64,000 bases of DNA from a virus: positions 1 through 64,000 of IMG/VR virus record IMGVR_UViG_3300043449_002292, one strand, 5' to 3'. This document shows positions 1 to 47,328 of this stretch, piece by piece. A program made the translations under genes and the position numbers. Numbering within the stretch: position 1 is the first letter of the stretch; each line of letters starts with the position of its first letter. The notes under the pieces were generated by a model. It did no database searches and had not been told where the DNA came from. It saw only the letters and a list, made by a program, of their open reading frames with translations.

Positions 1-112
1 ACGCATCCACCGTCTCATCTTTCGGAATCCGCTCGGTGACGATCCGGCTGACGTGTTCCTTGAGCTGGAACTCGATCGCGTCCTGGAGCCAGAGGTTGAT
101 CTCGATGCTCAT
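1..112 (-). CDS. hypothetical protein, truncated by window edge
   Basis: ATG at 112 (MSIEINLWLQDAIEF...) overlaps the upstream stop (ATGA); frame open to position 1. Confidence 0.55.
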   Translation of the reverse strand, partial: MSIEINLWLQDAIEFQLKEHVSRIVTERIPKDETVDA

Positions 113-429
113 GTTCCGGGCTCCCGCTCTTCCTTCATCTTGAGAATCCGCCAGGCGTGCTCGAAACAGTCTCTGGCGAGCCACATCGGGATGAACCCAT
201 CCTCCAGCTCCTTGATGATCTTCGTCTGACTCTTCTCGGATTGGACCGGGAACCAGCCCTCGGGGTAATCCCCAAACTCCTCTGGGATAAGGATCCGGCA
301 CATGAGGGGAGAAGGTCCTGCTTGCATCCCGGTCACGTTTGTCTGCCAGCCGAGCTGGACTCGACCGGAATCAGATTTGTGCGGGTAGAGGGTGATCTCC
401 TTGATGATCCTCACTTCGATGTCGGCCAT
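109..429 (-). CDS. hypothetical phage protein
   Basis: start MADIEV preceded by AAGGAG SD. Confidence 0.7.
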   Translation of the reverse strand: MADIEVRIIKEITLYPHKSDSGRVQLGWQTNVTGMQAGPSPLMCRILIPEEFGDYPEGWFPVQSEKSQTKIIKELEDGFIPMWLARDCFEHAWRILKMKEEREPGT

Positions 430-719
430 GGATTCTCCTTGCGGTGCTCGCCACGTTCGATAGAACCGACGAGCAGGTAGCCGTCGAGGTACGTTTGCGG
501 AGGGAGGCCCAGCCACCGGATGAGAGCGGCGCGATCCTCTCGAACAGCGTTCGCAGCATCCACGCCGCAGTCCAACCGCGCCTGTGCCGCTGCCCACGCT
601 TCACGGAAGTGGTCACGCTCGGCGCGCAGCTTCTCCACCTCAGCGACCAGGGCATTGATGTTGTCTTCACGCGGGGGAGCAAAGCGCGGATCATTGAGCG
701 GATATTCATTATCGATCAT
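411..719 (-). CDS. hypothetical protein with short coiled coil
   Basis: GAGGAG SD, tight operon packing. Confidence 0.65.
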   Translation of the reverse strand: MIDNEYPLNDPRFAPPREDNINALVAEVEKLRAERDHFREAWAAAQARLDCGVDAANAVREDRAALIRWLGLPPQTYLDGYLLVGSIERGEHRKENPWPTSK

Positions 720-721
720 GT

Positions 722-955
722 TTACTCCTCGACCATAAGTTCAGACTTGACGATGAGGACATAGCAATCCGTCATGAAGCCCACAAGCTCTCCCGTCTCG
801 AGGTTGACCGAGTTGTAGTGTTCATCCGTGTCCCGCTCAAAGATGTCGGCGGTCTTGAGGAGGACCGGGCAGCCGGGCCTTTCTACGAATGTCTGACCGA
901 TTCCAACGTAATCCCATGGAGTGAGAGACTTGACTGTGCTTCGTGTGATCTTCAT
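722..955 (-). CDS. hypothetical protein
   Basis: GAGGAG SD, operon packing. Confidence 0.7.
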   Translation of the reverse strand: MKITRSTVKSLTPWDYVGIGQTFVERPGCPVLLKTADIFERDTDEHYNSVNLETGELVGFMTDCYVLIVKSELMVEE

Positions 956-964
956 GTTTACTCC

Positions 965-1393
965 TCAGCTAAACTCACCTGAAATATAATCATATGTGCC
1001 CTCGCCGTGACCCACACAGCCCCCGTCCTCAAAGAACTCGATCCTGTGACGGACGAGCCCGTTGGGCCCCGGTTCAGCGTGGTTGTTCTCCATGAAGTTC
1101 GGGTCTCGAGGCGGCGCGCCAGTCCGCGAGCGATTCGTGATGACCCCCATCATCTTGTCGAATGGGATGATCTCTTGGTACTCGTTGATGATGATCCGGT
1201 CAGGTTCGATGAACATCCTGATCCAATCCTCGATGTTGTTGATCCCGAGCTCCGGGACGACGTGGAGGCTGAAGCACCAGCCCATCGAGCTCTTCCCGAT
1301 GTGGATGCAGTCCTCGGTCCCGCGGAGGTCCCAGAATGACTCGGCACTTTCGTAGTCGAAGCCTCGGCGGACGCTGTAGTAGTTCGTTCCCAT
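965..1393 (-). CDS. conserved hypothetical phage protein
   Basis: MGTNYY...HIGKSSxGWxF motif typical of a widespread phage family. Confidence 0.8.
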   Translation of the reverse strand: MGTNYYSVRRGFDYESAESFWDLRGTEDCIHIGKSSMGWCFSLHVVPELGINNIEDWIRMFIEPDRIIINEYQEIIPFDKMMGVITNRSRTGAPPRDPNFMENNHAEPGPNGLVRHRIEFFEDGGCVGHGEGTYDYISGEFS

Positions 1394-1396
1394 CGA

Positions 1397-1645
1397 TCAG
1401 CCTCCGCAGCGGCTCTCATGAAGGTTCACCTCACCCTCGATCAGGCCGAGGGTCGAGTATTCTCTGAAGTGCTTCACACCCGGTGACCAGCCCTCAGGAG
1501 CAGGCTGCGTCGCGTACCAGACACTGTCGCCCTTCCAGGTGACGTCGAAGACCTGCCGATCACAGGGGATCTGGATGTCCATGGTGCCGCCGAAGGATCG
1601 GGCGAGCTGGTTGTCGCAGGCAAGAAGCATGATGATCGTGAGCAT
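1397..1645 (-). CDS. small phage lipoprotein
   Basis: LLAC lipobox, then RxFGG...TWK..WY pattern common in phage lipoproteins. Confidence 0.7.
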   Translation of the reverse strand: MLTIIMLLACDNQLARSFGGTMDIQIPCDRQVFDVTWKGDSVWYATQPAPEGWSPGVKHFREYSTLGLIEGEVNLHESRCGG

Positions 1646-1656
1646 TTTATCTCCTT

Positions 1657-1896
1657 TCAAACCCAGTAATCGACGTTGTCAGGGGCGACGATCTCCGAGG
1701 CGTCGAGCTCCATGTGGTCGAAATCATAGTTCCGGCTGATGCACTGGCGGGCAAGCTCTTCAGCACGATCATTGATCGCATCGCCGGAGTATGACCCATC
1801 CTCATCGGGTGTGAGCTCATCCAGCCCGACAGCGACCTCGACCTCGACGGACTTCTCGCAGATCATCGTCACCTTGACCTTGAAGAACCTATCCAT
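1657..1896 (-). CDS. acidic hypothetical protein
   Basis: AAGGAGGTG SD, immediately downstream of a promoter. Confidence 0.7.
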   Translation of the reverse strand: MDRFFKVKVTMICEKSVEVEVAVGLDELTPDEDGSYSGDAINDRAEELARQCISRNYDFDHMELDASEIVAPDNVDYWV

Positions 1897-1899
1897 CGA

Positions 1900-2142
1900 T
1901 CACCTCCTTTGTGATCCAATCATACCATGCTCGCCACCCGTTTGCACGGGTTCATCGAGCTTCCTGAAGTGTGACTCTGAAAGAGTTTTTACACTGCCGT
2001 CGACGAACACGCGCCACTGGATGTCGAAGGGGATCGTGGAATCACGTTCGATGATGAGCCCGGGCATGCCGTGGATGTGCGCGAGCGAGCCGATCCGGAT
2101 CGACCGGGGAAGGTCAATCACGACGAGATCACCTGGTTTCAT
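1900..2142 (-). CDS. MKPGD-family small KOW/SH3-like protein
   Basis: MKPGDLV start; beta-rich pattern. Confidence 0.8.
   Translation of the reverse strand: MKPGDLVVIDLPRSIRIGSLAHIHGMPGLIIERDSTIPFDIQWRVFVDGSVKTLSESHFRKLDEPVQTGGEHGMIGSQRR
1919..1947 (-). promoter_or_regulatory. class I promoter GTGCAA-N17-TATGAT
   Basis: 17-nt spacer; motif repeated across the window. Confidence 0.75.
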
Positions 2143-2416
2143 CGATCACTTCGAGCTCACTGTTCTCCATGTCGTATTGCTCCCCATCGAAGAGCACGAC
2201 GCTTCCGCTGACGAGCATGCCTGGTGGCATCGGATGCACGTTCTTCCGCCACCCATCGATCACTAGCCCGATCGAGTTGATCATCGGGTCACCCGGGGAT
2301 TTCCAGTAGATCCCGTCGAGTCCGATGCCCGGCTTGAACCGCACGAGAGTTCCCAGTGGCAGGTGACCCTTGATGAAGACGTGAAGCTGCATGTAGGCCC
2401 ATCTCAGGATCCGCAT
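2129..2416 (-). CDS. SH3-like small protein (array member)
   Basis: internal PLGTLVR; ends LEVIDETR overlapping the next MKPGD. Confidence 0.7.
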   Translation of the reverse strand: MRILRWAYMQLHVFIKGHLPLGTLVRFKPGIGLDGIYWKSPGDPMINSIGLVIDGWRKNVHPMPPGMLVSGSVVLFDGEQYDMENSELEVIDETR

Positions 2417-2607
2417 CCGATCACCTTCCAATCGTAGTAGTTCTGATGCATGATCTCACCGTTGACGAGCAGCTTGCAGCCCCTGAGAAACTGGTCAAGC
2501 ATCTGGTTTCCCGACCGTGGCTCCTCGACCGAGATCACCAGCGCGACCGCGTCACCGATGACGAAGTTCTCGGGAAATTTTAGGGTCACGAGATCACCCG
2601 GTTTCAT
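2404..2607 (-). CDS. MKPGD-family small KOW/SH3-like protein
   Basis: MKPGDLV at 2607. Confidence 0.75.
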   Translation of the reverse strand: MKPGDLVTLKFPENFVIGDAVALVISVEEPRSGNQMLDQFLRGCKLLVNGEIMHQNYYDWKVIGCGS

Positions 2608-2791
2608 TGAGCGGCTCCGAGTGCTTGTGTACCCAATCAAGACTCCATGATCTCACATGCTTTCCACCGACTAGGAAGTCAACACTTTCATCTCTTTCCC
2701 TGACATCGGTGACCATGAAGATTGCACCTCCGTTGAACATGGGCGGCATGTCATCAGGGTATCTCCAGCGACGAAGGTCACCGGGTTTCAC
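2594..2791 (-). CDS. MKPGD-family small protein
   Basis: GTG-KPGDLRRW. Confidence 0.75.
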   Translation of the reverse strand: MKPGDLRRWRYPDDMPPMFNGGAIFMVTDVRERDESVDFLVGGKHVRSWSLDWVHKHSEPLNETG

Positions 2792-3018
2792 CCAATCACC
2801 TCGCTGTATGTGTGAATCTCCATCTGGGACACGTGCTCAACGAGGTTTCCGTCTTCGAGAATCGTCCACAAGATCTCACCGCGGTCTCTTCCGCTCCAGC
2901 CGAGATCGTTGCGTCTGTGATTTCGCTCAACCCGCATGCTGATGGTGATGAATGTCAACCCATCAAATTCTGCGGCTTTCCAGTTCCACCGACGCAGCTG
3001 TCCCTTCTTCACTCGCAT
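2788..3018 (-). CDS. MKPGD-related small protein
   Basis: VKKGQLRRW variant; ends EVIG. Confidence 0.7.
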   Translation of the reverse strand: MRVKKGQLRRWNWKAAEFDGLTFITISMRVERNHRRNDLGWSGRDRGEILWTILEDGNLVEHVSQMEIHTYSEVIG

Positions 3019-3200
3019 TCGATCACCTCCAGAAAGCTGCTGTCACACTCCTCCACGAGCTCCCCGTCGTGGATGTAATCGACAGCTGTCCATGAGCCCG
3101 CAACGGTGGGCAAGGGTCGCGGATCGACCTTGACGATGAGGACGATCTTTCCGCTTCGGATACCGACATCCTTGAGACGTGCGAGATCACCGGGCTTCAT
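3009..3200 (-). CDS. MKPGD-family small KOW/SH3-like protein
   Basis: MKPGDLARL...GKIVLIV...LEVI. Confidence 0.75.
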   Translation of the reverse strand: MKPGDLARLKDVGIRSGKIVLIVKVDPRPLPTVAGSWTAVDYIHDGELVEECDSSFLEVIECE

Positions 3201-3387
3201 CGAGCAGCTCCAGGTCTTCTTTTGCCCATGCCGTTTCACGATTGTCCCATAGGACCCACCAGTCGCATACTGAGTAGATGTCGATGCCATCGGCGTTGGT
3301 GACGGGCCTGAGGATCATGCAGACGTTAGAGTCACTCCACTCACGCCAGGCAGGATGCACGATCCTGCAGAGATCACCGGGTTTCAT
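3187..3387 (-). CDS. MKPGD-family small protein
   Basis: MKPGDLCRI...DLELLDEAR. Confidence 0.8.
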   Translation of the reverse strand: MKPGDLCRIVHPAWREWSDSNVCMILRPVTNADGIDIYSVCDWWVLWDNRETAWAKEDLELLDEAR

Positions 3388-3583
3388 CGATCTTCCACAG
3401 GTCCAGCTTGTGGACGGTCATTACCTTGCCATCGACCAGGACTTCCCAGATGTTGGGTGAGGATAGAACTCCGTCGGCTTCGCCCAAGTTTCGGATCAGA
3501 AGGCAGACCTTGCCTTCTTCTGCGCGAACCCAGGGTGTCTGATCCTTCGCCTTGATGATTCGCATGAGATCACCCGGCTTCAC
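3374..3583 (-). CDS. MKPGD-family small protein
   Basis: KPGDLMRI...WEVLVDG...IDETR. Confidence 0.8.
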   Translation of the reverse strand: MKPGDLMRIIKAKDQTPWVRAEEGKVCLLIRNLGEADGVLSSPNIWEVLVDGKVMTVHKLDLWKIDETR

Positions 3584-3752
3584 TGATCACCTCGTAACTG
3601 TAGACAAGCTTATTCTCAAGGTCGGCATCCCAGATCTTGCCATCAATTAGAAATCGCCAGCGGGCCCGGGCATTCAGGGGACTAAGACCGATGTAGACCC
3701 CGAGGTAGACGGCATCGAATCGTTTGATCCGAACGAGATCACCGGGTTTCAT
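3570..3752 (-). CDS. MKPGD-family small protein
   Basis: MKPGDLVRI at 3752. Confidence 0.75.
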   Translation of the reverse strand: MKPGDLVRIKRFDAVYLGVYIGLSPLNARARWRFLIDGKIWDADLENKLVYSYEVISEAG

Positions 3753-3942
3753 CGATCCTCCGAAGGTAATTCTCACCGATGTCACGGGTTGTGCCGTTGA
3801 CAAGGACTAGCCAGGTCTTGTGGACTGCGGTGAGCTGAGATTCCTCAACGATAACTGCAAAACGATTATTCCAGGTGTCGTAGGGAGAAAGATCCCAGAC
3901 ACTCTCTGGAAGCTCGATCCGAACGAGATCACCGGGCTTCAC
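3739..3942 (-). CDS. MKPGD-family small protein
   Basis: KPGDLVRI...WLVLVNG...IDETR. Confidence 0.8.
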   Translation of the reverse strand: MKPGDLVRIELPESVWDLSPYDTWNNRFAVIVEESQLTAVHKTWLVLVNGTTRDIGENYLRRIDETR

Positions 3943-4537
3943 CGATCACCTCCGTGAACGCCTCGAGGTAACCGCAGGTCGTTCCGAAGACGCCTCTAGG
4001 GCCGAGGCATTTACAATTCTTGAGGCCCTCGATCATGACGATCACGAAGGGCTCATCTCGATCGTCCTTCCAACGACGGAGCTCACCCACGCGGACGGAT
4101 GTGAACTCCCAGTCCCCTGGGTTGAGGGTGTGGATCACGTCGCCGATGTCAGCCCGGGGCCAAGGGTAGCCCCTGACGTAGCTCAGGCCCGTCACAACGC
4201 CTACAGTTCCGCGAGGGAAACGCAGCCTGTTCTTGTCGCAACGACGGTCCCTCCATGCGATCGCCGTGGCACCCTTGGGAATCGCGGTGAATCCTGGCTT
4301 GATCATGATACCATCATATCCTATGGCAGGTCGTGTTGCACGGGTGAGCCCCACTCGTTCTGGTCCTCGCTGGAGGGTGGAGTTGATACGGACCCATTCG
4401 ACAGTGAAGGTCATGAGCGCACCCTCGCTGAGGATCTGGCAGACGAGCCCGTTGAGATGCTTGAGAACGATGAGAGGTCTCCCGCCCAGCCCAGGGGCGA
4501 CGTCGTCCGCCCACCATCGAAGCTCACCCGGTTGCAT
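3929..4537 (-). CDS. in-frame fusion of three MKPGD-like modules
   Basis: MQPGELRW / MIKPG / VRVGELRRW modules in one frame, with an internal promoter. Confidence 0.6.
   Translation of the reverse strand: MQPGELRWWADDVAPGLGGRPLIVLKHLNGLVCQILSEGALMTFTVEWVRINSTLQRGPERVGLTRATRPAIGYDGIMIKPGFTAIPKGATAIAWRDRRCDKNRLRFPRGTVGVVTGLSYVRGYPWPRADIGDVIHTLNPGDWEFTSVRVGELRRWKDDRDEPFVIVMIEGLKNCKCLGPRGVFGTTCGYLEAFTEVIGEAR
4313..4341 (-). promoter_or_regulatory. class I promoter GTGCAA-N17-TATGAT (internal; leaderless ATG at 4306)
   Basis: motif and 17-nt spacing. Confidence 0.7.
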
Positions 4538-4796
4538 TCAACGTCGTTACCTCATCCTCGACCACCCAGCAGACTCGATCGTTGAGGAGAACCTCCAGCA
4601 TCGTGTATGATGTCGGGTCGCGGTCCGGATCGCCCGAGACGTATCTTCCCGGAAGCAGGAGACCGATCTGGTCGTGCTCCCACTTGCCCTGCCAGTCGTC
4701 GGTGCCGTCAGGTCGGTTCCAGACATCTAGATAGGTGATAGGAACCTTGCATGCGACGTTCCACCTTCGGGGCTTCAGGAGATCGCCAGGCTTCAT
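4524..4796 (-). CDS. MKPGD-family small protein
   Basis: MKPGDLL at 4796. Confidence 0.75.
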   Translation of the reverse strand: MKPGDLLKPRRWNVACKVPITYLDVWNRPDGTDDWQGKWEHDQIGLLLPGRYVSGDPDRDPTSYTMLEVLLNDRVCWVVEDEVTTLNATG

Positions 4797-5035
4797 CGTT
4801 GCGCGTCCGCGAGTGTGGCGTGGCTCGCCCCCGCCCACCAGAGCTCTCCGCCGATGAGGAGCTGGAGCTTCATGACGTCGAACCCTCCGACCTTCCGGAC
4901 CCCCACTGCGACGACGACCGCGACCTCACCGGGATCCCAGGCACGCTCACGACCCCGGCTCGAGAAGGTGGGATGCATGCTGTCACGGACGATGACACCC
5001 GCGTAGGCAGGCAGCACGAGATCACCCTTCTGCAT
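4793..5035 (-). CDS. MKPGD-family small protein
   Basis: MQKGDLV. Confidence 0.75.
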   Translation of the reverse strand: MQKGDLVLPAYAGVIVRDSMHPTFSSRGRERAWDPGEVAVVVAVGVRKVGGFDVMKLQLLIGGELWWAGASHATLADAQR

Positions 5036-5189
5036 TGCTCAGTTCCCACGGAAAGTAGTAGAGGCACTCACCGTCGGATGTGAGAACGCGGTATGCGGTC
5101 TCGCCCTCGGTCACGTCCACCTCGACGATCAACCCGAGCCCAAAATCGCAGTTATCGGCGACAACATGGACGAGATCACTGATTCCCAT
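5022..5189 (-). CDS. 55-aa SH3-like array member (below ORF-track cutoff)
   Basis: MGISDLVHVVADNCDFGLGLIVEV...YRVL...WELSNAEG; 14-nt overlaps at both ends. Confidence 0.7.
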   Translation of the reverse strand: MGISDLVHVVADNCDFGLGLIVEVDVTEGETAYRVLTSDGECLYYFPWELSNAEG

Positions 5190-5457
5190 CTAGCACCTCA
5201 AGGTCCTCGATGCGGACTGCCCTCATGATTCCATCGACGAGACCATGTGCCTCCTCCACCTCTACATGAATCTCATCCTGTCCAAGCATCGAGCCCGTGT
5301 CCCACTCCTTCGAAACCCCCAGAACGAGGAATGGCTTCCCCTCGAGGATCCAATCGTATCCCAAGCGCTTCACGCGGACGAGGTCACCCACGTGGACCGG
5401 CTGCGAGCAGCCGAACCTGGGCTCGTTCAGGTAGAACAGGACGGGTTTCTCATCCAT
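5176..5457 (-). CDS. SH3/KOW-like protein (VGDLVRV)
   Basis: VGDLVRVK...EDLEVL; ATG 7 nt from the -10 box. Confidence 0.7.
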   Translation of the reverse strand: MDEKPVLFYLNEPRFGCSQPVHVGDLVRVKRLGYDWILEGKPFLVLGVSKEWDTGSMLGQDEIHVEVEEAHGLVDGIMRAVRIEDLEVLDGNQ

Positions 5458-5463
5458 ATGATC

Positions 5464-5492
5464 ATCATACCACATCGGCAGGTGGATTGCAC
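5464..5492 (-). promoter_or_regulatory. class I promoter GTGCAA-N17-TATGAT
   Basis: motif and spacing. Confidence 0.75.
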
Positions 5493-5671
5493 GGGACCAG
5501 CAGGTCGGGTGTGACCTCTATGATCTTCCCATGCCACAGGATCCGCCAGATCGTAAGGGGCTTCCCGCGTTTGCTGTGGGTGGCGACGATGAGGGCCGGC
5601 TCATCATGGAACTTCCTCATATAGGCCCCGAGTCCCACGACCCTGATGAGAACGAGATCACCGGGCTTCAT
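5465..5671 (-). CDS. MKPGD-family small protein
   Basis: MKPGDLVLI. Confidence 0.75.
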   Translation of the reverse strand: MKPGDLVLIRVVGLGAYMRKFHDEPALIVATHSKRGKPLTIWRILWHGKIIEVTPDLLVPCNPPADVV

Positions 5672-5858
5672 CTACCAACTCAAGATGATCGATCAGGAAG
5701 AATTCATTACCGTCCCAGAGCATAACATTGGCGACCTCATCGCAGTCATCGAAGCTCCACGCCGTGCTGATCACGAATCCCAACTCGCTCTCATCGTAGA
5801 GACGACGACCGCAAAGAAAACGAGACGGTTTAAGTTTAACAAGATCACCTGATTTCAT
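5658..5858 (-). CDS. MKPGD-family small protein
   Basis: MKSGDLVKL...LELVDEAR. Confidence 0.75.
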   Translation of the reverse strand: MKSGDLVKLKPSRFLCGRRLYDESELGFVISTAWSFDDCDEVANVMLWDGNEFFLIDHLELVDEAR

Positions 5859-6109
5859 TCTTTAGGTCCTGGCGGTTTCAACCCTCTATAGAAACGAGAA
5901 TAATGGCAAGTTGAATTTACTTCGCCCATCATGAGAACGGTCGGGTATCGGTGATGAGGGGCAGCGGGTGGAGTGATCCAAATAGCCGGAACGTAATCAT
6001 CATTACCTAGATGGAACCATACGAGCTCACCCGATTCTGGAACATTTATCGCCCTGGTGACCTGTCCATCATCGCGTTTAAACTCACCGATCCTGAACAG
6101 GTAATTCAT
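5855..6109 (-). CDS. hypothetical protein (PESGELVW, PWWP/SH3-like)
   Basis: ORF ending in an ATGA overlap; start uncertain. Confidence 0.5.
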   Translation of the reverse strand: MNYLFRIGEFKRDDGQVTRAINVPESGELVWFHLGNDDYVPAIWITPPAAPHHRYPTVLMMGEVNSTCHYSRFYRGLKPPGPKE

Positions 6110-6140
6110 GGATCGCCCTGGGTCCTGTGGGATAATCTTA

Positions 6141-6800
6141 TTATTCATCCTGCCAGCCCACGCAATCCCAGCAAGCTCCGACATCACGACCGTGCTGCGT
6201 TCTAGCGTCAAGCTCCACGTTATCAAACCTAAAAGATTCAAAAATTCGATCAGTCACCGATCCAACGACCCTGTTCTGATCATCGCATGAGTTGAATGTC
6301 ATATTTTTCAACTCATCAAGCTCGCTGTTAATCTCTTTCACGATCAACGCGCCGTATCTCCTCGCAAGCTCAACGTGCTGTAGTTCATGAAGCTTGATTA
6401 ACGCGATAAGATTCGTGAATGATTCGGAGTCGGGAGTTTGGGACCCTGAGTAGTGTGGAAGGATTATCTCAGTATTGATAGTCAAACGCTGTAAGTCGCA
6501 GCTATCGCTGTTCAGTTCAGGGACGAAGTAAGATGACGTCACTGCGCTCATGGTTTTTCCAGAGTTCGGATCTTTCGGACCAAGTTCGATCACACTGTTC
6601 CGGAGCTCAGCCCCTGTTTGACCCGTAACAACGTAGAGGCGTTCCGTAATATCGTGCTTGATAAATTGCGCAGCGACAGGGTCGACAGGATCGATCAATC
6701 CATCGAGCGGATCAAGGGTTTCAGAAGGACTCCCAATGTTACTAAGATCTGGGTTGTAACAAGCAGACGCAACCAGCAAAATGATACTCGACGATAACAT
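6141..6800 (-). CDS. secreted/lipoprotein Zn-metalloprotease-like (DUF922-like)
   Basis: signal peptide with ASAC lipobox; Y.V.G.T..EL motif; HELQH; FD..T.HG-like end. Confidence 0.65.
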   Translation of the reverse strand: MLSSSIILLVASACYNPDLSNIGSPSETLDPLDGLIDPVDPVAAQFIKHDITERLYVVTGQTGAELRNSVIELGPKDPNSGKTMSAVTSSYFVPELNSDSCDLQRLTINTEIILPHYSGSQTPDSESFTNLIALIKLHELQHVELARRYGALIVKEINSELDELKNMTFNSCDDQNRVVGSVTDRIFESFRFDNVELDARTQHGRDVGACWDCVGWQDE

Positions 6801-6822
6801 CTCTTTTCCTCGTTAAGTAGTG

Positions 6823-7119
6823 TTACTCATCATTACGAATCGGTATCACATCGACGTGTGACTCGTAGCACCAGACGATCTCACCGTTGGGTAGCATGAT
6901 CTGGCATCGTCCCAGGCCCTCGGGTCCATCGACGTGATGCTCGATGAGGGTCGCGATCGTGCCTGTTGGAACGTGATTGTATCGACCAGCGTCCGAACGC
7001 CAGACCGGAACCTGGGACATGGCACCCGTGTATGATCTTGGACTGCCCCGGAGATCGATCGGAATGTAGCGTTCCCGCTGATTCAAGCAAACGAGATCAC
7101 CGCTTCGCAGTATTGACAT
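6823..7119 (-). CDS. SH3-like protein (LRSGDLV)
   Basis: family N-terminal motif. Confidence 0.65.
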   Translation of the reverse strand: MSILRSGDLVCLNQRERYIPIDLRGSPRSYTGAMSQVPVWRSDAGRYNHVPTGTIATLIEHHVDGPEGLGRCQIMLPNGEIVWCYESHVDVIPIRNDE

Positions 7120-7165
7120 CGGCAGCTCCGACCCTCGTTAATCGTAACATGAGCAGCCCAAGTGT

Positions 7166-7393
7166 TCAAGCTCGCTCACGATCTTCGACCTTGGTAAAGT
7201 AGATTAACGGTGCCTGGATCGTTCCGGAAGGCCCAAGCACCTGAAGCGATCTACCACTGGTTCCCTCACGCTGGATGACACGTAGGACAAGGCAGACACC
7301 AAGTTGCCTGATGTCCTGCCACTCTTCCTGATGATCGTTCCACTCACGCATACGAACTAGATCGCCGACCTCGATGTGAGTGGATGGCGACAT
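7166..7393 (-). CDS. SH3-like protein (IEVGDLVR)
   Basis: family N-terminal motif. Confidence 0.65.
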   Translation of the reverse strand: MSPSTHIEVGDLVRMREWNDHQEEWQDIRQLGVCLVLRVIQREGTSGRSLQVLGPSGTIQAPLIYFTKVEDRERA

Positions 7394-7398
7394 GGATA

Positions 7399-7830
7399 TT
7401 AATCGACCGCATCCTTCGAGAGATGAAGAGCGAGCCTCGCTGCGAGGACGCGAATTCTCTTCGCCTCCTTCTTCGTGACGCGGACCTTACCGTCGATATC
7501 CTTTCTGAGCGCGGTGGTGCGCTCCTTGTTAAGAGCCTCAGCGTCCGGGACGGGCTCGATGAACTCCTCGGCTTTAAGTGACATTTCCTGATCCTCCTCA
7601 TCTAAGTGTTTCAAACTTCGCGGGTTTACAGGCTTAATCCAACGTGAGGGGACGATGCCGACCTGACCTTCGAATATCACCTGCCATGATGGGATGAGCC
7701 AACCCGTCGGCAGATGCTTCACCAGCAAGACAAGATCACCCGTCTTGATCATCTTGTTGGATTCGTGATTCAGCGTCTCAAAGACTGACGGGATCGATAC
7801 GGTCACCTCTGCGAGATCGCCGGGCTTCAT
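7399..7830 (-). CDS. MKPGD-family protein fused in frame to a second small ORF (MSLKAEE...)
   Basis: MKPGDL start; internal GAGGAGG SD plus ATG. Confidence 0.6.
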   Translation of the reverse strand: MKPGDLAEVTVSIPSVFETLNHESNKMIKTGDLVLLVKHLPTGWLIPSWQVIFEGQVGIVPSRWIKPVNPRSLKHLDEEDQEMSLKAEEFIEPVPDAEALNKERTTALRKDIDGKVRVTKKEAKRIRVLAARLALHLSKDAVD

Positions 7831-7892
7831 TATCTAATCTTAACCTGAATCGTCGAATTGTTCAACGAATTGAATATCTACAGCAGGGGGAC

Positions 7893-8138
7893 ATGAGGAT
7901 GAAAGCGATCGAAAAGCTCGAGAAGGCGCCCCTCCAATCGAAGAAGTTTATCGCCTACCTGATTTCCAACTTAGGGTCGAAGCTCCTGATGTTCTGGATG
8001 GTCTACAGCAAGGAGTCTGACTTCGTTCTCACAGCAGTCGTCACCGCTGCGGCGTTCATAGACATCGGATACATCCTGGGTCAGGCAGCGCTCGACAAAT
8101 ATGTCAGGGTCACATCGATGAAGGGTGAGGGGAGCTAA
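7893..8138 (+). CDS. small two-TM membrane protein, holin-like
   Basis: SKKF...YILGQAALD pattern, two hydrophobic segments. Confidence 0.6.
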   Translation: MRMKAIEKLEKAPLQSKKFIAYLISNLGSKLLMFWMVYSKESDFVLTAVVTAAAFIDIGYILGQAALDKYVRVTSMKGEGS

Positions 8139-8557
8139 CCCTCTTTCTTCGTGCTGCAGCTGTCGCACAAAGTTCGGACCCACCCGCCGCTCCTGGGCTT
8201 ACCAAGCGCGCCGCAGACCTCGCAGGTCCTGTACGACAAAGCCTCGGCCATCGAGATCAGACCACGAACGTATTCGTCCGAGTTATCCACGTAGAAGCGA
8301 AGCCCACCGAACTTCTCCTTCACCTGAACCGCGCGAACCTGGACCCTCTCATCGAACTCCTCAACGGTCATGTGCTTCTTCGCACGATGATGGTTCATAT
8401 GCTGCTGGATGTGGGCACACAGAGCGTCGATAATTTCAAACCATCCATCACTGCACTCGAAGCCGAAGCACATGAGTGTCACTTTCGGATCACCGTCCCT
8501 GTCCCTGAAGATCTGTGGGTACCGCTCACACAGCTCCTTGTCTCTCTCAGGTGTCAT
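8135..8557 (-). CDS. conserved phage protein with C-terminal Zn finger
   Basis: GW..II; QVKEKFGGLRFY; CEVCG...CDSC. Confidence 0.85.
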   Translation of the reverse strand: MTPERDKELCERYPQIFRDRDGDPKVTLMCFGFECSDGWFEIIDALCAHIQQHMNHHRAKKHMTVEEFDERVQVRAVQVKEKFGGLRFYVDNSDEYVRGLISMAEALSYRTCEVCGALGKPRSGGWVRTLCDSCSTKKEG

Positions 8558-8781
8558 CGCTCCTCCTGAGCGTCACGCGTCCGCTGCTTTCCGAGCATCA
8601 TCTCGAGCGCCTCGATCAAAATCCGCTGGAATCCCTCGGCATCGTCCACCTGCAGTCCGAAAGCAGCGTAGAACTCCGTCTCCTTCCCGTCCTCGATCTC
8701 GAAGACGAGACGCATCCCGCCACCTTCGATGGGTTCCTCGGTGATTCCGATGAGTCCGGGAACCTCAGTAACCGGTGCCAT
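8554..8781 (-). CDS. hypothetical protein
   Basis: GGAGG SD, ATGA coupling. Confidence 0.65.
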   Translation of the reverse strand: MAPVTEVPGLIGITEEPIEGGGMRLVFEIEDGKETEFYAAFGLQVDDAEGFQRILIEALEMMLGKQRTRDAQEER

Positions 8782-9112
8782 CGTTCCTCCCGCCGGGAAG
8801 CCGCTCGATCAGACCGGGATAGTAACCCGTGCCCTCCTTCAGGTGCCGAACCAGGTTCTGGGGACCGTAACCGTCCGGGTCACAGTGCGCATCCCAATGC
8901 TCGGTGATCTCATCGTGCGCGGCCATCATCACGGTCCGAAGACGCAGGTTCTCCTGTGAGAGCCGGGTGACCTCGGCCTGCAGCGCCTGGACGCGATTGG
9001 GCTCACTCACCCACTGGGCGAACTGACGGACGATCCCTTTCTCAGACTCCAGGAGCTTCCTGATGTCCTCCTCATCGATGTGATGCAACCACTTGGGTAA
9101 AGATTCACTCAT
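8765..9112 (-). CDS. hypothetical coiled-coil protein
   Basis: start MSESLP with GAGGAG SD. Confidence 0.65.
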   Translation of the reverse strand: MSESLPKWLHHIDEEDIRKLLESEKGIVRQFAQWVSEPNRVQALQAEVTRLSQENLRLRTVMMAAHDEITEHWDAHCDPDGYGPQNLVRHLKEGTGYYPGLIERLPGGRNDGTGY

Positions 9113-11512: not shown

Positions 11513-12211
11513 CTAAACCGTTAACCGTCTGTCGATGAGATCATTGATGAGGTCCCAGGCTTCCTGTATCTCGCCCGTCCTGCGTAGAACGCGATACGCG
11601 AGGTTCTCATTCGAGAGCTCACCGTCACGCTCCAGCCCAGCCTTCCGGAGCTTGGTGATACGCTTCATGGCGGCCAGCAGGGGCCCCTCCTCCTGTGAAT
11701 CGGAGGCCCTGCGGATCACCTCACGAAAATCCTGCACCTTGCCCATCACCTTCGACTCATCGAATGATGCACCATCATCCGGTGGCTCCAGAGCCCATTC
11801 ATTCCGGGTGATGCTCCAGCGGCCCGTCACCTCGGGAGGATCCTCGTTGACATCCTCGACGTAGACCTCGACCGGAATACCCCTGACTGTGATGTCGTGC
11901 TCCTCCTCCCACTTGAATTTCGCGAGCTTGCAGGCTCGCTGGGCAGCCTCTGAATCGTCGAAGGAGCTGAGGTCTGCGATGATGTGGAGGTCAAGGTCGC
12001 TGCCCGGTCCCCAGGTTTTCCCCGCATAGCTGCCGGTCAGGATGACGTCCTCAACGTCGAGATCAAGCTCGAGCTCCTCGAGAAAGCGTTCCGCGATCCG
12101 AGCGAGGGCATTCGCGACGTCGGGTCTGAGGCCCTCAGGGGTCCATACCCTCTCGCTGAGCCACGACTTCGGCCTGATCGAGCTTATCGCAGCCCGCGTG
12201 TCCAATCTCAA
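11513..12211 (-). CDS. Pol-beta superfamily nucleotidyltransferase
   Basis: LTGS...SDLDLH, VEVYVE, ENLAYRVLRR. Confidence 0.8.
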   Translation of the reverse strand: MRLDTRAAISSIRPKSWLSERVWTPEGLRPDVANALARIAERFLEELELDLDVEDVILTGSYAGKTWGPGSDLDLHIIADLSSFDDSEAAQRACKLAKFKWEEEHDITVRGIPVEVYVEDVNEDPPEVTGRWSITRNEWALEPPDDGASFDESKVMGKVQDFREVIRRASDSQEEGPLLAAMKRITKLRKAGLERDGELSNENLAYRVLRRTGEIQEAWDLINDLIDRRLTV

Positions 12212-14310: not shown

Positions 14311-15831
14311 ATGTCAGGATTCGCTTCGATCGCAAGAAATGGTGGCCAGGGAGCCGGCGGGAGCAACACGGCGAACGCTTCGCAGACCTCACAGTTCGGT
14401 GAGACCCTTGTCGCGCAGCTCACACCCTCTGCGCAGGCAACATTCGTTCACGGCCTGAACATTATCAACTTCATCACCCGCTCGATCGGCGCAGGATCAT
14501 CGGTGACGTCCTACAGCGGAAGCGCCTTTCTCCAATCTGGCACCGCGACGACGGGATCCGCCGCGATCCAGATGCGTCGCGGCCTCACCTACCGTCCGGG
14601 CCAGGGATCACTGTGCCGTGTAACCAGCATCTTCGGGCCTCCTGTCGCTGATACCTACCAACTCTGCGGTATGGGTAACGTCGAAGCGGGATTCTACTTC
14701 GGTTACCAGGGGCTCGACTTCGGAGTTCACCACTTCACAGGAGCCCTGCGAGAAGTTCGGACTCTCACGATACCTGCCGGAGGAGTCGGTCTTGGTGCGT
14801 CAGTTACGGTGACTCTCAACGGTCAGTCGAAGACTTTCACAATCAATGGCGGATCAGACCGCAATCAGACTTCGTGGGAGATTTCATATCAGGATTGGAC
14901 AAACGTCGGTGGTGGGTGGGTCGCAGAAGCCTACGACGGTGTGATATACTTCATCGCGTTGCGAACAGGTGCTCGAACTGGGACGTACAGCACGACTATC
15001 GCTAGCGCGGAGTTCGCGCGGTACATCGCCGGGTCCTCGGTCGCCGGTACCTTCGTCTCGCAGTCGGCCTGGAACATCGACACGATGGATGGCAATGGAC
15101 CGAGCAGAATGATCCTCGATAAGACGAAGGGCAATGTCTACCAGATCGGATTCCAGTATCTCGGATTCGGCAACACGAGGTTCGCGATCGAGGATCCACA
15201 GACCGGCCAGTTTCAGGCCTGTCACATGATTCGACAGGCAAACTCCCGTCTCACACCGGTCCTGAGCGATCCGCACGTCTCGGTAATCTGGACGACCTCG
15301 AACGCGGGATCCACAACGTCAACGCACATGACGGGAACCTCGGGAGCGATCTTCTGTGAGGGTGAGGTCGCCCGCAACATCGGGCCTGCTTTCTCTGCCT
15401 ACGGCGTGAACATCGACGTTGGGACTGCGGAAGAGCCGATCCTCACAGTGAGAAGCAACAGGATCTTCAGAGGCACCGTCGGTTACGGCGAGATGGACGT
15501 CAGCACGCTCTCGGTGACGGTGCCTAGCACGGGAAACCACTACATCACCCTAAGGCTCTACAAGAATCTCAGGCTGACCGGACCTGTAAACTTTGTGAAT
15601 GTCAACGCCGACCAGTCAATTGCCTCATACGATACTGCAGCAACAGGATTCGACACGAACCAGAACACCCTGGTGGCGACCTACGTCATCCCATTTGGAG
15701 GCTCTATCAACCTTGACTTGAAGGGTGATAACTTCTTCCTGTCAGTTGGAGAGTCGCTGACAATCACGGGTCAGTCGACCCTCGCGGGCGCTGATGTTGC
15801 GTGCGCTGTCACATGGTTCGAAGATCAGTGA
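14311..15831 (+). CDS. beta-rich virion structural protein
   Basis: long Gly/Thr/Ser-rich ORF; YRPGQG...FQYLGFG motifs seen in phage structural proteins. Confidence 0.75.
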   Translation: MSGFASIARNGGQGAGGSNTANASQTSQFGETLVAQLTPSAQATFVHGLNIINFITRSIGAGSSVTSYSGSAFLQSGTATTGSAAIQMRRGLTYRPGQGSLCRVTSIFGPPVADTYQLCGMGNVEAGFYFGYQGLDFGVHHFTGALREVRTLTIPAGGVGLGASVTVTLNGQSKTFTINGGSDRNQTSWEISYQDWTNVGGGWVAEAYDGVIYFIALRTGARTGTYSTTIASAEFARYIAGSSVAGTFVSQSAWNIDTMDGNGPSRMILDKTKGNVYQIGFQYLGFGNTRFAIEDPQTGQFQACHMIRQANSRLTPVLSDPHVSVIWTTSNAGSTTSTHMTGTSGAIFCEGEVARNIGPAFSAYGVNIDVGTAEEPILTVRSNRIFRGTVGYGEMDVSTLSVTVPSTGNHYITLRLYKNLRLTGPVNFVNVNADQSIASYDTAATGFDTNQNTLVATYVIPFGGSINLDLKGDNFFLSVGESLTITGQSTLAGADVACAVTWFEDQ

Positions 15832-15832
15832 G

Positions 15833-16849
15833 CTAAGCCGCCCGCTTCTTGGTGAGGCGCTCCGCAGCCTTCTTCTCCTTGTCCTTCCGGGCGATCTCAT
15901 TGATCTTCTCGTCGGTGGTGCCACGCTGCTCGTCGTAGAAAGCCGACATGTTCCGGCCGGTGACGAGCTGGATGACCGCGAGCTCCTTCGCCTTCGCCTC
16001 GACAACGCAGTCGATCTCGAGACCGTGAGGATCGACGGGACCATCGACGAAGTTGGAGTGGGCGGTGGCAGCGACATCACGACCCTCACGCTCGCGGGCC
16101 GACTCGGAGTAATGGGTGACAGGGCGGATACCGGCCGGCCAGGTGCTCGCTGCGAGGTGAAGGGCATCACGTTCGGAGAGGCCGCCATCGCAGAACTTGT
16201 GATGGTGATAGTCGAAGACGACCGGCGTCCCGGTGCGCTGCCAGACGGTGTGGAGATCGACGACGCTGTAGCACTTCGCCTTGTCATCGTTCTCGACCGT
16301 GAGACGTCGCTTGACATTCTCGGGCACCCGCTCGAAGTTGCGGCACCAGCGATCCATCGACTCCTCCTTCTGGCCGAAGGCGCCGCCGAGGTGGATGTTG
16401 ATCTTCGCCTCGGGGGTGTTGGGCAGGCCGATGGCGTCCATGATCTCACCGTGGATGCGGAGGTCACGGATGCAGTTGGCGACGACGTGCTCGCGGGGGG
16501 AGGTCAGGCAGTTGAACTGGCCCGGGTGGAAAGAGAGGCGCTGACCACCCTCACGGGCAAGCTTACCGGCGAGCTCGAGGGTGCTTCGAATTGCCTGCCA
16601 GTCGGGTAGCTGCTCGAACTCGTATTCCGAGGCCCACGGGGCCAGGTCGGAGGTCATCCGATACACCTGGATCCCATTGGTGTTGTTCCATTGGATGATT
16701 CCGCAGAGTGTCTCCACATTCTCCAGGGTGAGGCGGGATGCGTGCTGCAGGCCCTTCTCGGCGAATGTGCGCTTGATCATCGATCGAAAGCCACCCTTCT
16801 TCGGACCGAGGGTCATGTTGAGACAGGCGTAGCCGAAACGAGTTGCCAT
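15833..16849 (-). CDS. uvsE: UV-damage endonuclease
   Basis: GYAC, R.TSDLAP, SFHPGQF, TVENDD, VFDYHHH, HYS, EAKAKE. Confidence 0.95.
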   Translation of the reverse strand: MATRFGYACLNMTLGPKKGGFRSMIKRTFAEKGLQHASRLTLENVETLCGIIQWNNTNGIQVYRMTSDLAPWASEYEFEQLPDWQAIRSTLELAGKLAREGGQRLSFHPGQFNCLTSPREHVVANCIRDLRIHGEIMDAIGLPNTPEAKINIHLGGAFGQKEESMDRWCRNFERVPENVKRRLTVENDDKAKCYSVVDLHTVWQRTGTPVVFDYHHHKFCDGGLSERDALHLAASTWPAGIRPVTHYSESAREREGRDVAATAHSNFVDGPVDPHGLEIDCVVEAKAKELAVIQLVTGRNMSAFYDEQRGTTDEKINEIARKDKEKKAAERLTKKRAA

Positions 16850-16866
16850 GGTTAACCTCCAATCCT

Positions 16867-16895
16867 ATCCTACCATGGATTGAAGGCTATTGCAT
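16867..16895 (-). promoter_or_regulatory. class I promoter ATGCAA-N17-TAGGAT
   Basis: motif and spacing upstream of uvsE. Confidence 0.65.
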
Positions 16896-16915
16896 GGGTT
16901 CAGGACGGGTCGGCC

Positions 16916-17266
16916 CTAGTAATCTTCCTCTTCCATGTCCTCATCGGACTCGAGATCCTCGGTCTCACCCACGGCCCAGTCATTCACGTAACTCTTCAGA
17001 TGCTCGCACATGTCATCGATCATGCCCATGACCTCATCCTTCACGCGCGCCGGACGTGATGCACCGCGGCTGAGCATGTCCGCGATATCGATCGCGTAGC
17101 GCTCCATGATGCCGTTAAAGTCCAACTCAGGAATATCATCGTCGTCCATCTCGGGTGGGGGTGATCCGTAGACAGCCTCGATCTCCTCGGGGAAAGAACC
17201 CTCACGAAGGGCACGTTTCGCCTCTTCCTTGATAATCCTACGCATCATTGACTCGGTCAATCTCAT
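16916..17266 (-). CDS. acidic protein with RRIIKEE N-terminal tag
   Basis: MRLTESMMRRIIKEE...ALRE. Confidence 0.75.
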   Translation of the reverse strand: MRLTESMMRRIIKEEAKRALREGSFPEEIEAVYGSPPPEMDDDDIPELDFNGIMERYAIDIADMLSRGASRPARVKDEVMGMIDDMCEHLKSYVNDWAVGETEDLESDEDMEEEDY

Positions 17267-21978: not shown

Positions 21979-22215
21979 TCAGTCTCGTTTTTCAAGCTCA
22001 TCGTCCCAGGCCATGAGCACCTGGTCATTTACCAATACCTCAAAACACTCATGATCATTCGGGTCCTTACCTACGCTCTTGATGATCATCGCTAGGTTCC
22101 CATCGTAGTTGTCAGAAGCATTCTTCACAGGAGAAAAGTTCTTTAAAGATACGTGACGAGCCCTGTGAGATGTCTTCAGACGAACTAACGAACCTGGCGA
22201 GAAGACGGACATCAC
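21979..22215 (-). CDS. SH3-like protein (FSPGSLVRL)
   Basis: family-like motif, EVLV...W.DEL. Confidence 0.65.
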   Translation of the reverse strand: MMSVFSPGSLVRLKTSHRARHVSLKNFSPVKNASDNYDGNLAMIIKSVGKDPNDHECFEVLVNDQVLMAWDDELEKRD

Positions 22216-22481
22216 GCGAGGTCCTCGCCCTCGGGCTCCTCGTAATCGACCTCCTCAATCTCTGTCCCGCAGGATTCACAAACGTGAACATTCACACGGG
22301 AATTTGACTGAAGAACAGTTACAATATCGTCCATGATATCAGCGAAGCTTTCAATCTCGCTAACTGCGAAGTTTAGAACCAGCTTTCCCGCTGGGACGAA
22401 CACCAGCCCCGTCTCCTTCACCATCCAAGCTCCGTGAGGTAACCTGATCGATCCCCTGGGTGGCTGCAGCGCTTGATTCAT
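22212..22481 (-). CDS. hypothetical protein with CxxC
   Basis: strong SD; CESCG. Confidence 0.6.
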   Translation of the reverse strand: MNQALQPPRGSIRLPHGAWMVKETGLVFVPAGKLVLNFAVSEIESFADIMDDIVTVLQSNSRVNVHVCESCGTEIEEVDYEEPEGEDLA

Positions 22482-46700: not shown

Positions 46701-47328
46701 AGTTGTCGTCCTCCTGTGCCTCCTTCAGCATCCGAAGATCGACACGCGGGAACTTGTAGAAACCCTCGGAGTATCCGCGGCTCACAAGACCGAAGAGTCG
46801 CTCGAGACCCTTGCTGTGTCGAGGTAGGACCACGAGATGGTGACGACGGTTGATCGGATTGAAGTGCTTTGTGGACTTCGTCTCGTCCTCATTCTCGATC
46901 GTGAGGGCCGAGTTATCGGTGTCGATGCCGATCGTCTCGTCATTCTCATCGGTTGTGGCAACAATGGGAGTCACCACATTCTCGGGCTTTACCTTCGCTT
47001 TCGCGTGGCTCTTGCGATCACGCTTGAGCTGCTGCCACTCATCGTACTCACCGCGCCAGGCATCGAGATCCGGGTGGATATACATCTCACAACCTGGGAT
47101 GAGCTTGAAGTCCTTCCCAGCCTTTCGCATCTTATCGACGTGCAGCCACGCATGACCGAACGAGTTCATGTGACCGTGGTTCGTCATCGACCAGCCGTCG
47201 AGGCCATTCTCCGCGCAGAAGTCGATGTGCTCCTGTGGAAGACCGAGTCCGTCGAACACGCTGAAGCCGTCATGGGAATGCAAGCCGAAGAACTTCTCCG
47301 GACGCTTCAATTCGCTTCCATCTGCCAT
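43705..47328 (-). CDS. dnaE: DNA polymerase III alpha subunit (family C)
   Basis: PHP H.H..FS.FDG, GRGSGAGSLV, PDIDTD, HAGG, KFDLLGL, GFN.SHA.AY, C-terminal OB fold. Confidence 0.97.
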   Translation of the reverse strand: MADGSELKRPEKFFGLHSHDGFSVFDGLGLPQEHIDFCAENGLDGWSMTNHGHMNSFGHAWLHVDKMRKAGKDFKLIPGCEMYIHPDLDAWRGEYDEWQQLKRDRKSHAKAKVKPENVVTPIVATTDENDETIGIDTDNSALTIENEDETKSTKHFNPINRRHHLVVLPRHSKGLERLFGLVSRGYSEGFYKFPRVDLRMLKEAQEDDNFIVSTACVGGPLAFEVFRELQEHSFDSLNSRLLDDPSMMERVINRIGNSFDGLAWAVGRKNVMLELQFNRLPAQHIVNRALIEFAQRQGMTDQLVVTCDSHYARPEHWREREIYKKLGWLNYAELSADSIPKSKDQLKCELYPKNASQVWDEFLTSRQTEAFYHGQEDLIRKAVERTWHLAHEEIGDVQPDRSVKLPSYVIPKGKTANEALVDAVKAGLAAKGLAGRQDYVERADYEIDVIKQKDFASYFLTMKEIISAAKEEMFIGPGRGSGAGSLVCYVLGITDVDPIKYGLLFERFLSPDREGLPDIDTDVENRDQLLAILRSKFGGENIVPISNYNTFKLKTLVRDISRLYDIPLEEVNASLKTVEKEVMDATRKVGDDKNLFVLTFEESYEHSPSFREFIDKYPQVSESIKVLFRQNKALGRHAGGVIISERIQERMPLIMAKGEQQTPWVEGMNYKHLEMLGWVKFDLLGLETLRMIRRTIELILERHHGLKDPKFKDVKAWFDKYMSNDVLDFDDQRVYENVYHEATTRTPGVFQLTSKGAQRLFQNAKPRSIIDIATLTSVFRPGPLAAKVDKLYLEAKANPRNIDYKHPLIKQVLEPTFGCIIFQEQLMQLCNVVAGFPKSECDKVRKNILKRQGGNPEESMKKAKAMKDSFVNGAVGNGIKESVASKLWDDILFFAGYGFNLSHALAYAIDSYYCAWLLTYYEAEWLCAYMESMIGNPDDRAQAISDVKKMGYDIGNVDINLSTNQWSVDAERKLLIPSFNTIKGVGETAIEEIVACRPYRSIEEMLWKEDGQWRPSKFNRRALEALIKAGGFESMGIVGKGKQFSSWKQMHHVLIENAEDIKKWAKKDPQRGVKRFRELLVETEGMPEWTRREMALMQIELSGKMDPVSLISPELRQKFKDKEVYSIDNWERLDIYWFVVVSSVEKKTKNGKPYLMLQVMGEAGNTEKMFMWDWDGKIGFEPYTLCVAEVDRSDFGLSTKGKKIKVM

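Follow-up and report, generated by a model that had tools for sequence, protein, structure and literature searches.

A gene array of a freshwater jumbo phage in which small predicted barrel proteins appear to be exchanged as whole cassettes at a dual-coding junction

The first 64,000 nucleotides (nt) of the 142,859-bp virus contig held as IMG/VR record IMGVR_UViG_3300043449_002292 (43% complete according to CheckV), referred to here as the window, carry an array of 17 consecutive, gapless open reading frames (ORFs) on the minus strand, running from position 5858 to position 1900. At 11 of its junctions, neighbouring genes overlap by exactly 14 nt in a joint that is read in two frames, and homology among related loci switches inside this joint. 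On balance, we favour the interpretation that this is a cassette array within the hyperplastic accessory region of an uncultured freshwater jumbo phage, coupled in translation and recombining at its own junction without an integrase.

Phage genomes are mosaics, and in T4-type phages the shuffling of small accessory genes has already been described at intergenic promoter/stem-loop cassettes. Here the same outcome is associated with a repeat that is itself coding sequence: some 20-odd bases serve as ribosome site, start, stop, and two protein ends, and also mark the whole-gene swaps. If the joint is truly a recombination substrate, gene-cassette systems would need neither an integrase nor non-coding DNA. 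Such a system would also account for the ability of a phage lineage to maintain many interchangeable variants (54 types across 17 loci) of a single small fold. A search of the literature on related themes and on the motif MKPGD found no description of such arrays.

In the proposed mechanism, the region would constitute a single, densely packed chain of some 20 ancient paralogues, probably transcribed together as a polycistronic unit and encoding predicted cytoplasmic proteins of 55-100 amino acids (aa) that adopt an SH3-like five-strand barrel and belong to a phage-restricted family without a name. A ribosome terminating at the TGA of one gene would reinitiate 11 nt upstream, at a start backed by a Shine-Dalgarno (SD) sequence. 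Co-infecting relatives would exchange genes, by way of a recombinase or of microhomology, using the 10-23 nt of sequence shared by the joints as the substrate, and an exchange at the joint would always yield intact, expressed genes. The proteins themselves may form a panel of distinct small binders acting inside the infected cell.

Results and Discussion

The initial annotation of this DNA, made from its letters and ORFs, had described an array of about 17 modules joined by an exact 14-nt overlap at 11 starts. The array of 17 ORFs is borne out, on the minus strand, which the annotation had left unstated, and each of the 11 starts (5671, 5189, 5035, 4537, 3942, 3752, 3583, 3387, 3200, 2607, and 2142) lies in an overlap of exactly 14 nt with the gene before it; at the other junctions the overlap is 4, 10, 11 or 13 nt. 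In the downstream frame, the joint reads ATG/GTG-AAR-CCN-GGT-GAT-CTC and encodes M-K-P-G-D-L. One frame over, it reads GAA-RCC-NGG-TGA and gives the upstream protein a tail of D/N/S-E-T/A-R/G followed by the stop. As annotated, this stop is the TGA in GG-TGA-T that spans the Gly-Asp codons, and the upstream proteins therefore end in DETR, DEAR or SEAG, and also in NETG or NAEG. The canonical junction at 3922-3952 (minus strand, like all those that follow) contains the SD GAGGTGATC, a GTG start, the 14-nt overlap, and the upstream TGA. The other ten lie at 2122-2152, 2587-2617, 3180-3210, 3367-3397, 3563-3593, 3732-3762, 4517-4547, 5015-5045, 5169-5199, and 5651-5681. The consensus pattern found six matches at ≤3 mismatches versus none in 100 shuffles, and an independent repeat finder recovered a 31-nt junction repeat family of 13 copies. 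The 21-nt identity noted earlier between the junctions of 3942 and 3752 is real (3937-3917 versus 3747-3727); between pairs of window junctions, exact identity has a median of 10 nt and a maximum of 23 nt. Six junctions were folded in silico, and their z-scores ranged from -2.5 to +1.2 with no common structure.

Numbering the joint from the first base of the downstream start codon, T and G at +2 and +3 are invariant in 74 junctions with the 14-nt overlap, so that each downstream gene retains its own ATG or GTG start. This invariance speaks against a programmed frameshift chain, in which a +1 shift at GGG-TGA or CGG-TGA would produce multi-barrel fusions and the overlap would be a fusion device rather than a site of reinitiation. 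The downstream frame is indeed +1 relative to the upstream one, the arrangement of an A-site stop codon behind an SD is reminiscent of the shift site of prfB, and one ORF of the array (G07, described below) shows that in-frame fusion of a module is tolerated. However, the SD and the putative shift codon are about 10 nt apart rather than 3 nt as in prfB, and although a +1 slip in GGG-TGA tails would land on GGT, also a glycine codon, most tails are CGG-TGA, which would re-pair poorly on GGT. We regard such a chain as extremely improbable.

The 17 ORFs belong largely to one protein family. A hidden Markov model (HMM) built independently from 74 relatives, excluding the window proteins and their orthologues, matched 14 of the 17 at E<0.01 and four additional ORFs, namely U1-U3 upstream of the array and a lone one at 21982-22254. 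The annotated count of about 17 modules holds approximately; G04 and G13 match weakly and G07 is a fusion. The array also extends beyond the annotated 1900-5858, with three further members at 7830-6823 and the lone one at 22254-21982; all MKPGD-type starts of the 142.9-kb contig fall within 1900-7830. Among 1.84 billion proteins, the family profile identified 100 cluster representatives, of which 62 begin with MKPGDL. About half of them end in [DNS]E[TAS][RG], the tail dictated by the overlap, so having another member next is common across the family. A DNA pattern scan showed that many other virus contigs also have arrays with this joint.

One module, the 67-aa G08 (3739-3942), was modelled with confidence by AlphaFold2 (AF2), with a predicted local distance difference test score (pLDDT) of 89 and strands at residues 6-9, 28-35, 43-48, 51-56, and 60-62. 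The model is a five-strand SH3-like barrel. In Foldseek searches, it gave TM-scores of 0.65-0.76 to PetP (7r0w_V, 2n5u), PsaE, SH3, and KOW structures, with probability ~1.0 and E ~0.01, and it also resembles many uncharacterised phage proteins. The suggestion in the initial annotation that the modules share a fold is consistent with their homology by HMM and with this single model; the AF2 model of the 202-aa G07 has low confidence (pLDDT 32). Like the barrels of PetP, PsaE, NdhS, the KOW domains of NusG/Spt5, and ribosomal L21e/L24, the predicted barrel has five strands and falls among proteins of 60-70 residues. In contrast to those proteins, the modules have no sequence match to the Pfam SH3/KOW families or to PDB sequences, their structural match stands at E ~0.01, and nothing hints at a ribosomal or photosynthetic role. 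Pfam, PHROGs, and PADLOC contain no family for the modules, which leaves the family unnamed in all three. None of the 20 proteins reached a Pfam KOW/SH3 gathering threshold (U1 matched SH3_2 and SH3_9 at E ~0.1, far below the cut-off), and a profile search of PDB sequences gave no meaningful match. In the protein atlas, only viral 'hypothetical protein' clusters were matched, with DUF4314, PetP, and YorP as sub-threshold leads. The modules have isoelectric points of 4.1-9.4, and reading their sequences by eye revealed no signal peptides or membrane segments. As a separate observation, the best match to the family profile in the library of 1.84 billion proteins is P0001, a protein of 2558 aa with 10 matching stretches, which may be a large protein made of repeats of the same barrel.

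The window paralogues are only ~18-33% identical to one another, and the ungapped nucleotide identity of their interiors is 28%. Within orthologue groups, the ratio of non-synonymous to synonymous substitution rates (dN/dS) is 0.06-0.5 (about 0.2), similar to that of D3, a flanking gene (0.28). Sequence comparison thus identifies the modules as real, conserved genes with distinct identities, under purifying selection and not locally hypermutated. With regard to the diversified library suggested in the initial annotation, the modules are not hypervariable in place, and each type is a conserved orthologue. As each type is conserved under purifying selection, the family supplies many candidate small modulators of host proteins for screening.

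Synonymous sites at the junction are also constrained. Codons at the junction were compared with those in the interiors of the same genes, and each bias was recounted once per module type. For Val at -7, GTG is used in 86% of cases at junctions versus 24% in interiors (P = 2e-13; 15 of 18 module types). For Glu at -10, GAG accounts for 91% versus 72% (P = 0.006; 23 of 25), and for Ile at -4, ATC accounts for 100% versus 79% (P = 0.001; 18 of 18). For Asp at +13 (Asp5 of the downstream protein), GAT is used in 82% versus 41% (P = 7e-11; 28 of 31). Within the overlap, a change at any base would be non-synonymous for one of the two genes, and conservation there needs no extra cause. The excesses of Val GTG and Asp GAT survive the collapse to module types, so junction conservation does exceed what amino acids and codon bias account for.

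The Val, Glu, and Ile biases fit selection for an SD. The extended SD is spelled by the codons of the last beta-strand of the upstream gene, L-E-V-I = CTG GAG GTG ATC. The sequence GAGGTGATC is the exact complement of the generic bacterial 16S rRNA 3' tail GAUCACCUC. As a consensus SD for the junctions, GAGGTGATC had been overstated: an exact copy is present only at 3942 and 3583, two canonical junctions out of 11, and five further starts (3018, 2791, 2416, 2142, and 1896) have a near-exact form. A strong SD (duplex energy <= -10 kcal/mol) precedes 8 of the 21 starts examined, which comprise the 17 array starts, those of the three upstream family genes, and that of the downstream gene D1. Similarly, the proposal that the upstream 'EVI' codons often form the SD agrees with the enrichment of GTG, GAG, and ATC, but a strong SD is present at only about one-third of the window junctions. 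The usual ribosome site of the phage, AAGGAG, is far commoner than GAGGTGATC. The Asp bias could stem from the stop context TGA-T. However, GGT-GAT is also favoured in family genes without an overlapping stop (14 of 20 types each for GGT and for GAT), and the stop and its context therefore do not explain the whole bias. Homogenisation, or another role for GGTGATC, is possible.

Comparison with related loci depended on the choice of anchor. Locus searches with a sequence alignment, with G11, with U4, and with a 378-aa ORF yielded nothing usable, whereas D3 (965-1393, minus strand), a conserved 142-aa gene downstream of the array, anchored 26 freshwater metagenome loci and 2 IMG/VR loci, in which modules were clustered at 50% identity. 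Across 17 D3-anchored loci, module subsets differ and each locus has its own order, so the relatives are not collinear. These loci contain 54 module types, 26 of them seen once; 12 of the window's types occur in no other locus, and in four loci the array in front of D3 is missing. Against the window order G01...G17, L056 (D3 97% identical) reads x108-x2-G12-G11-G16-x33-x7-x48-x6, and L079 reads x143-G05-x117-G04-x13-x114-G09-x144-G10-x14-x32-x2-G11-G16-x33-x48-x6, while L054 (D3 96% identical) has only G05 in common with the window. Whole genes have thus been gained, lost, and reordered. Module x2 has five different downstream partners, every one joined via a 14-nt overlap. G11 (3187-3387, 66 aa) has orthologues in nine loci with five different upstream partners, and G12 (3009-3200, 63 aa), which follows G11 in the window, precedes it in L056 and lies eight modules upstream of it in L055. 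Another locus, L053, is collinear with the window over 31018-15837, the final 164 nt being 99% identical. Between two genes conserved at 91-99% nt identity, the window then has 14.4 kb (15837-1393) and L053 only 2.6 kb (14440-17042), in which G05 is the only module in common (block 5035-4779). Common modules are 68-85% identical at the nt level, compared with 92% for D3, and the histories of the modules therefore differ from those of the flanks.

These comparisons also bear on a local gene accordion, that is, recent tandem duplication within one phage followed by fast divergence, without exchange between phages. Window paralogues at ~18-33% identity are not near-identical copies, a dN/dS of ~0.2 speaks against rapid diversification, and orthologues with 68-85% nt identity occur in other phages in other positions and orders. 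Tandem paralogues with a repeated joint, and the 12 module types found in no other locus, are what an accordion would leave; nevertheless, this explanation is largely refuted and we consider it very unlikely.

The breaks were mapped on the 74 junctions with the 14-nt overlap. Pairs that share the upstream module but differ in the downstream one are 0.7-1.0 identical through +14 and ~0.4 identical from +15, whereas pairs that share the downstream module only are ~0.3 identical through -7, with identity rising from -6. Bases at or before -7 follow the upstream module and bases at or after +15 follow the downstream module. The homology switch therefore lies between -6 and +14, and the exchange zone coincides with the joint's own 20 bases. 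Adjacency is retained in 21% of locus comparisons across junctions with the 14-nt overlap versus 58% across 4-nt overlaps, counts that are descriptive given the relatedness of the loci. Contigs from four other freshwater or drinking-water runs lose their likeness to the window at 2588-2618, 3182-3219, 3391, 3566-3567, and 3943, all of which are joints. Short Logan contigs also showed joints with 20-nt sides (e.g., 3752->5652 and 1393->3371); as the repeat may have cross-mapped here, they were left out of the deletions.

From these patterns we infer that the joint serves as a recombination substrate rather than only as a break site that selection tolerates. The latter is the main rival explanation. 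Under it, the joint is kept for the MKPGD N-terminus, the LEVI last strand, the SD, and the stop, and random illegitimate breaks survive only at gene ends, as they do generally in phages (textbook, Hendrix-type mosaicism). Much of the joint conforms to this expectation: no position of the 14-nt overlap is synonymous in both frames, and variation is found at +6 and +9, where both frames tolerate it; GTG at -7 suits SD pairing, so that selection on the SD could explain that bias; T at +15 yields the stop context TGA-T; and the exact identity of junctions is short (median 10 nt). Selection alone does not readily account for adjacency being retained in 21% of comparisons across the 14-nt overlaps but 58% across the 4-nt overlaps of the same arrays, nor for the preference for GGT-GAT (14 of 20 types each) beyond the stop and its context. 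Moreover, each gene swap would then take two precisely placed illegitimate events, and yet the 54 types combine freely. Selection-only mosaicism is disfavoured by the more frequent breaks at canonical joints and by the synonymous signal, and we judge it unlikely, though still the most serious competitor.

Several points weigh against a junction that itself recombines. Breaks at gene ends are also expected from selection for intact genes after random illegitimate recombination, and because of the overlap, both genes stay whole only if the break falls within the joint. The locus comparisons are not phylogenetically independent, and a junction identity with a median of 10 and a maximum of 23 nt is marginal for RecA-type exchange. 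Some exchanges took place at non-canonical junctions: G11 and G16, joined by a 4-nt overlap in eight loci, are split in the window. With a strong SD at only 8 of 21 starts, SD-based coupling cannot apply to all of them. The fold is a prediction from one module.

A stronger form of the proposal holds that the joint is a dedicated, selected recombination site. Together with the phage's own recombinase of the RecA/UvsX type, it would form an integrase-free cassette system through which co-infecting phages of the jumbo-phage lineage trade single SH3-like binder genes, drawn from no fewer than 54 types, in translation-ready form. The binders would be host-takeover or counter-defence factors with a repertoire that tracks the host strain. 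We hold this version to be possible but doubtful. As a whole, the reading given in the initial annotation is partly supported: its structural and evolutionary part stands, the array being a form of phage modular shuffling, and a role of the proteins as binders in host takeover or anti-defence is conjectural.

The nearest described system is the promoter-early stem-loop (PeSL) cassette of the hyperplastic regions of T4-type phages (Arbiol et al. 2010, PMC2839356). In both cases, short repeats lie between small accessory ORFs without assigned function in a phage with a T4-type capsid (PMC2839356). In both, related phages differ by whole small genes, bounded by repeats, that are inserted, deleted or replaced, no integrase is involved, and the repeat ends in the SD and start of the downstream gene. 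However, PeSLs are intergenic and consist of a sigma-70-type promoter, an AT-rich tract, and a terminator stem-loop, making each gene its own transcription unit (PMC2839356), whereas the array has no intergenic DNA and its repeat codes in two frames, with no promoter or stable hairpin. Across positions 1-9000, promoter-like and terminator-like sites are no more frequent than in shuffles; the promoter scan found four sites versus 4.1 expected and none at junctions, and no terminator-like site was found at a junction. The array joint would link translation rather than transcription. PeSL-flanked ORFs are unrelated ORFans, in contrast to the cassettes of the array, which belong to one protein family. 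For PeSLs, mini-circles excised by recombination between neighbouring repeats have been shown (PMC2839356).

The array also resembles an integron, with small, same-strand, exchangeable single-gene units that are each bounded by a repeated site, and with a large common cassette pool from which each genome holds a different subset. Unlike integrons, the array-bearing phages have no detectable IntI-type tyrosine recombinase: an integrase of this type (PF00589) was not found in four array-bearing contigs (G000, G001, G004, and the complete 298-kb genome G005). There is no imperfect-palindrome attC either, the six folded junctions having no consistent structure, and in the array the repeat lies within coding sequences and the cassettes are mutually homologous.

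Termination-reinitiation coupling offers a third comparison. The array has in common with such coupling (reviewed in PMC12548453) the same-strand overlap of stop and start and a downstream SD inside the upstream coding sequence, and translation may thus be coupled at the joint. The usual overlaps are 1 or 4 nt (ATGA, TAATG), whereas that of the array is a fixed 14 nt, repeated many times and conserved family-wide.

Genes of the array and its flanks

All genes in this section are on the minus strand and are given in the direction of transcription. U1 (7399-7830, 143 aa; independent HMM E=2.5e-4), with an MKPGDL start and a second internal GDLV motif, is the first gene of the extended array. It is followed by U2 (7166-7393, 75 aa; E=3e-5), a family member with an N-terminal extension, and by U3 (6823-7119), a family member of 98 aa (E=7.5e-7). 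Between the two parts of the array lies the non-family gene U4 (6141-6800), encoding a 219-aa DUF922 protein (Pfam PF06037, E=1.8e-16) that contains an HExxH motif and begins like a lipoprotein; U4 has no relative in the other arrays examined. The 128-aa ORF U5 (5855-6241), which has no match to the family HMM, overlaps G01 by 4 nt.

G01 (5658-5858, 66 aa; HMM E=6e-10) reads MKSGDL...LVDEAR, and G02 (5465-5671, 68 aa; E=1e-13) starts inside its 14-nt overlap. G03 (5176-5475, 99 aa; E=2.4e-4) combines a module with an N-terminal extension. The weakly matching G04 (5022-5189, 55 aa) has a degenerate N-terminus, MGISDL; its orthologues in L065 and L079 begin with MKPGDL. G05 (4793-5035, 80 aa) is the sole module common with the close relative L053/L054 (87% nt identity in the shared block). 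G06 (4524-4796, 90 aa; E=1e-12) precedes G07 (3929-4537), in which an RWW-type module is read through in frame into the 125-aa x13 gene (4306-3929). In L055, L065, and L079, x13 is a separate gene, and it may still initiate at its own ATG, at 4306, in the window. The stretch that is translated as the G07 linker (…RPAIGYDGI-MIKPGF…) is, in these three loci, a short spacer with a TATAAT-like element before x13.

Downstream of G08, G09 (3570-3752, 60 aa) and G10 (3374-3583, 69 aa) each have an orthologue in L079. After G11 and G12 come two RRW-type modules, G13 (2788-3018, 76 aa), with weak HMM support, and G14 (2594-2791, 65 aa), and then G15 (2404-2607, 67 aa). G16 (2129-2416, 95 aa), consisting of an N-terminal extension and a module, is located immediately after G11 in eight other loci. 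G17 (1900-2142, 80 aa) is the last module of the array. The lone family member at 21982-22254 matches the independent HMM at E=1.6e-8.

D1 (1657-1896), a non-family gene for an acidic protein of 79 aa, has a perfect GGAGGTGATCG-ATG site in front. It is exactly missing from a contig of another sample (run X4, joint 1656->1912) and is also missing between the array and D3 in all related loci; D1, too, behaves like a cassette. The stretch 15837-1393 is a hyperplastic region, which also contains a nucleotidyltransferase gene at 11513-12211.

The phage and its relatives

Nearly all genes of the contig are on the minus strand. Its hallmark genes include GroEL, a DnaE-type polymerase III alpha subunit, and ribonucleotide reductase, along with a T4-type major capsid gene of the Gp23 family (PF07068, 211 bits; contig 99678-100445) and a RecA/UvsX-like (RecA-family) recombinase gene (contig 67247-68050). 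The replicase is of the DnaE type, not T4 gp43. A Gp23-type capsid gene (648-aa ORF, contig 99678-101327) is thus paired with a bacterial-type DnaE replicase (window 43705-47373). Three further contigs with arrays, 164-298 kb in size, show this pairing too, which makes four large array contigs in all, including the complete 298-kb genome; a fifth contig, G003, an 18%-complete fragment, has a DnaE match and no capsid match. Among GenBank phages, neither the array (blastn) nor G10 (tblastn) had a match, and the nearest phage proteins are distant (DnaE <30% and GroEL <47% identity), so no cultured phage is close.

The sequence GATC is found 10.4 times per kb across the contig, compared with 3.9 expected from base composition (a 2.7-fold excess), and its density in the array is higher still, at 15.9 per kb; each canonical joint contains two GATC sites, 18 nt apart. 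A Dam-type methylase (PF02086), sought as an explanation for the excess, was not found in the 43%-complete contig. A start-masking hairpin between the two GATC palindromes appeared in two of the six junction folds, with stability no better than that of shuffles, and was rejected as a general feature.

A more distant array is present in the complete 298-kb genome (locus L032, 2966-6930), where many MKPGDM/L starts contain GGTGAT. In that array, the TGA terminates only very short upstream frames of 5-37 codons, and the GGTGA motif is therefore retained although it does not serve there to end a module.

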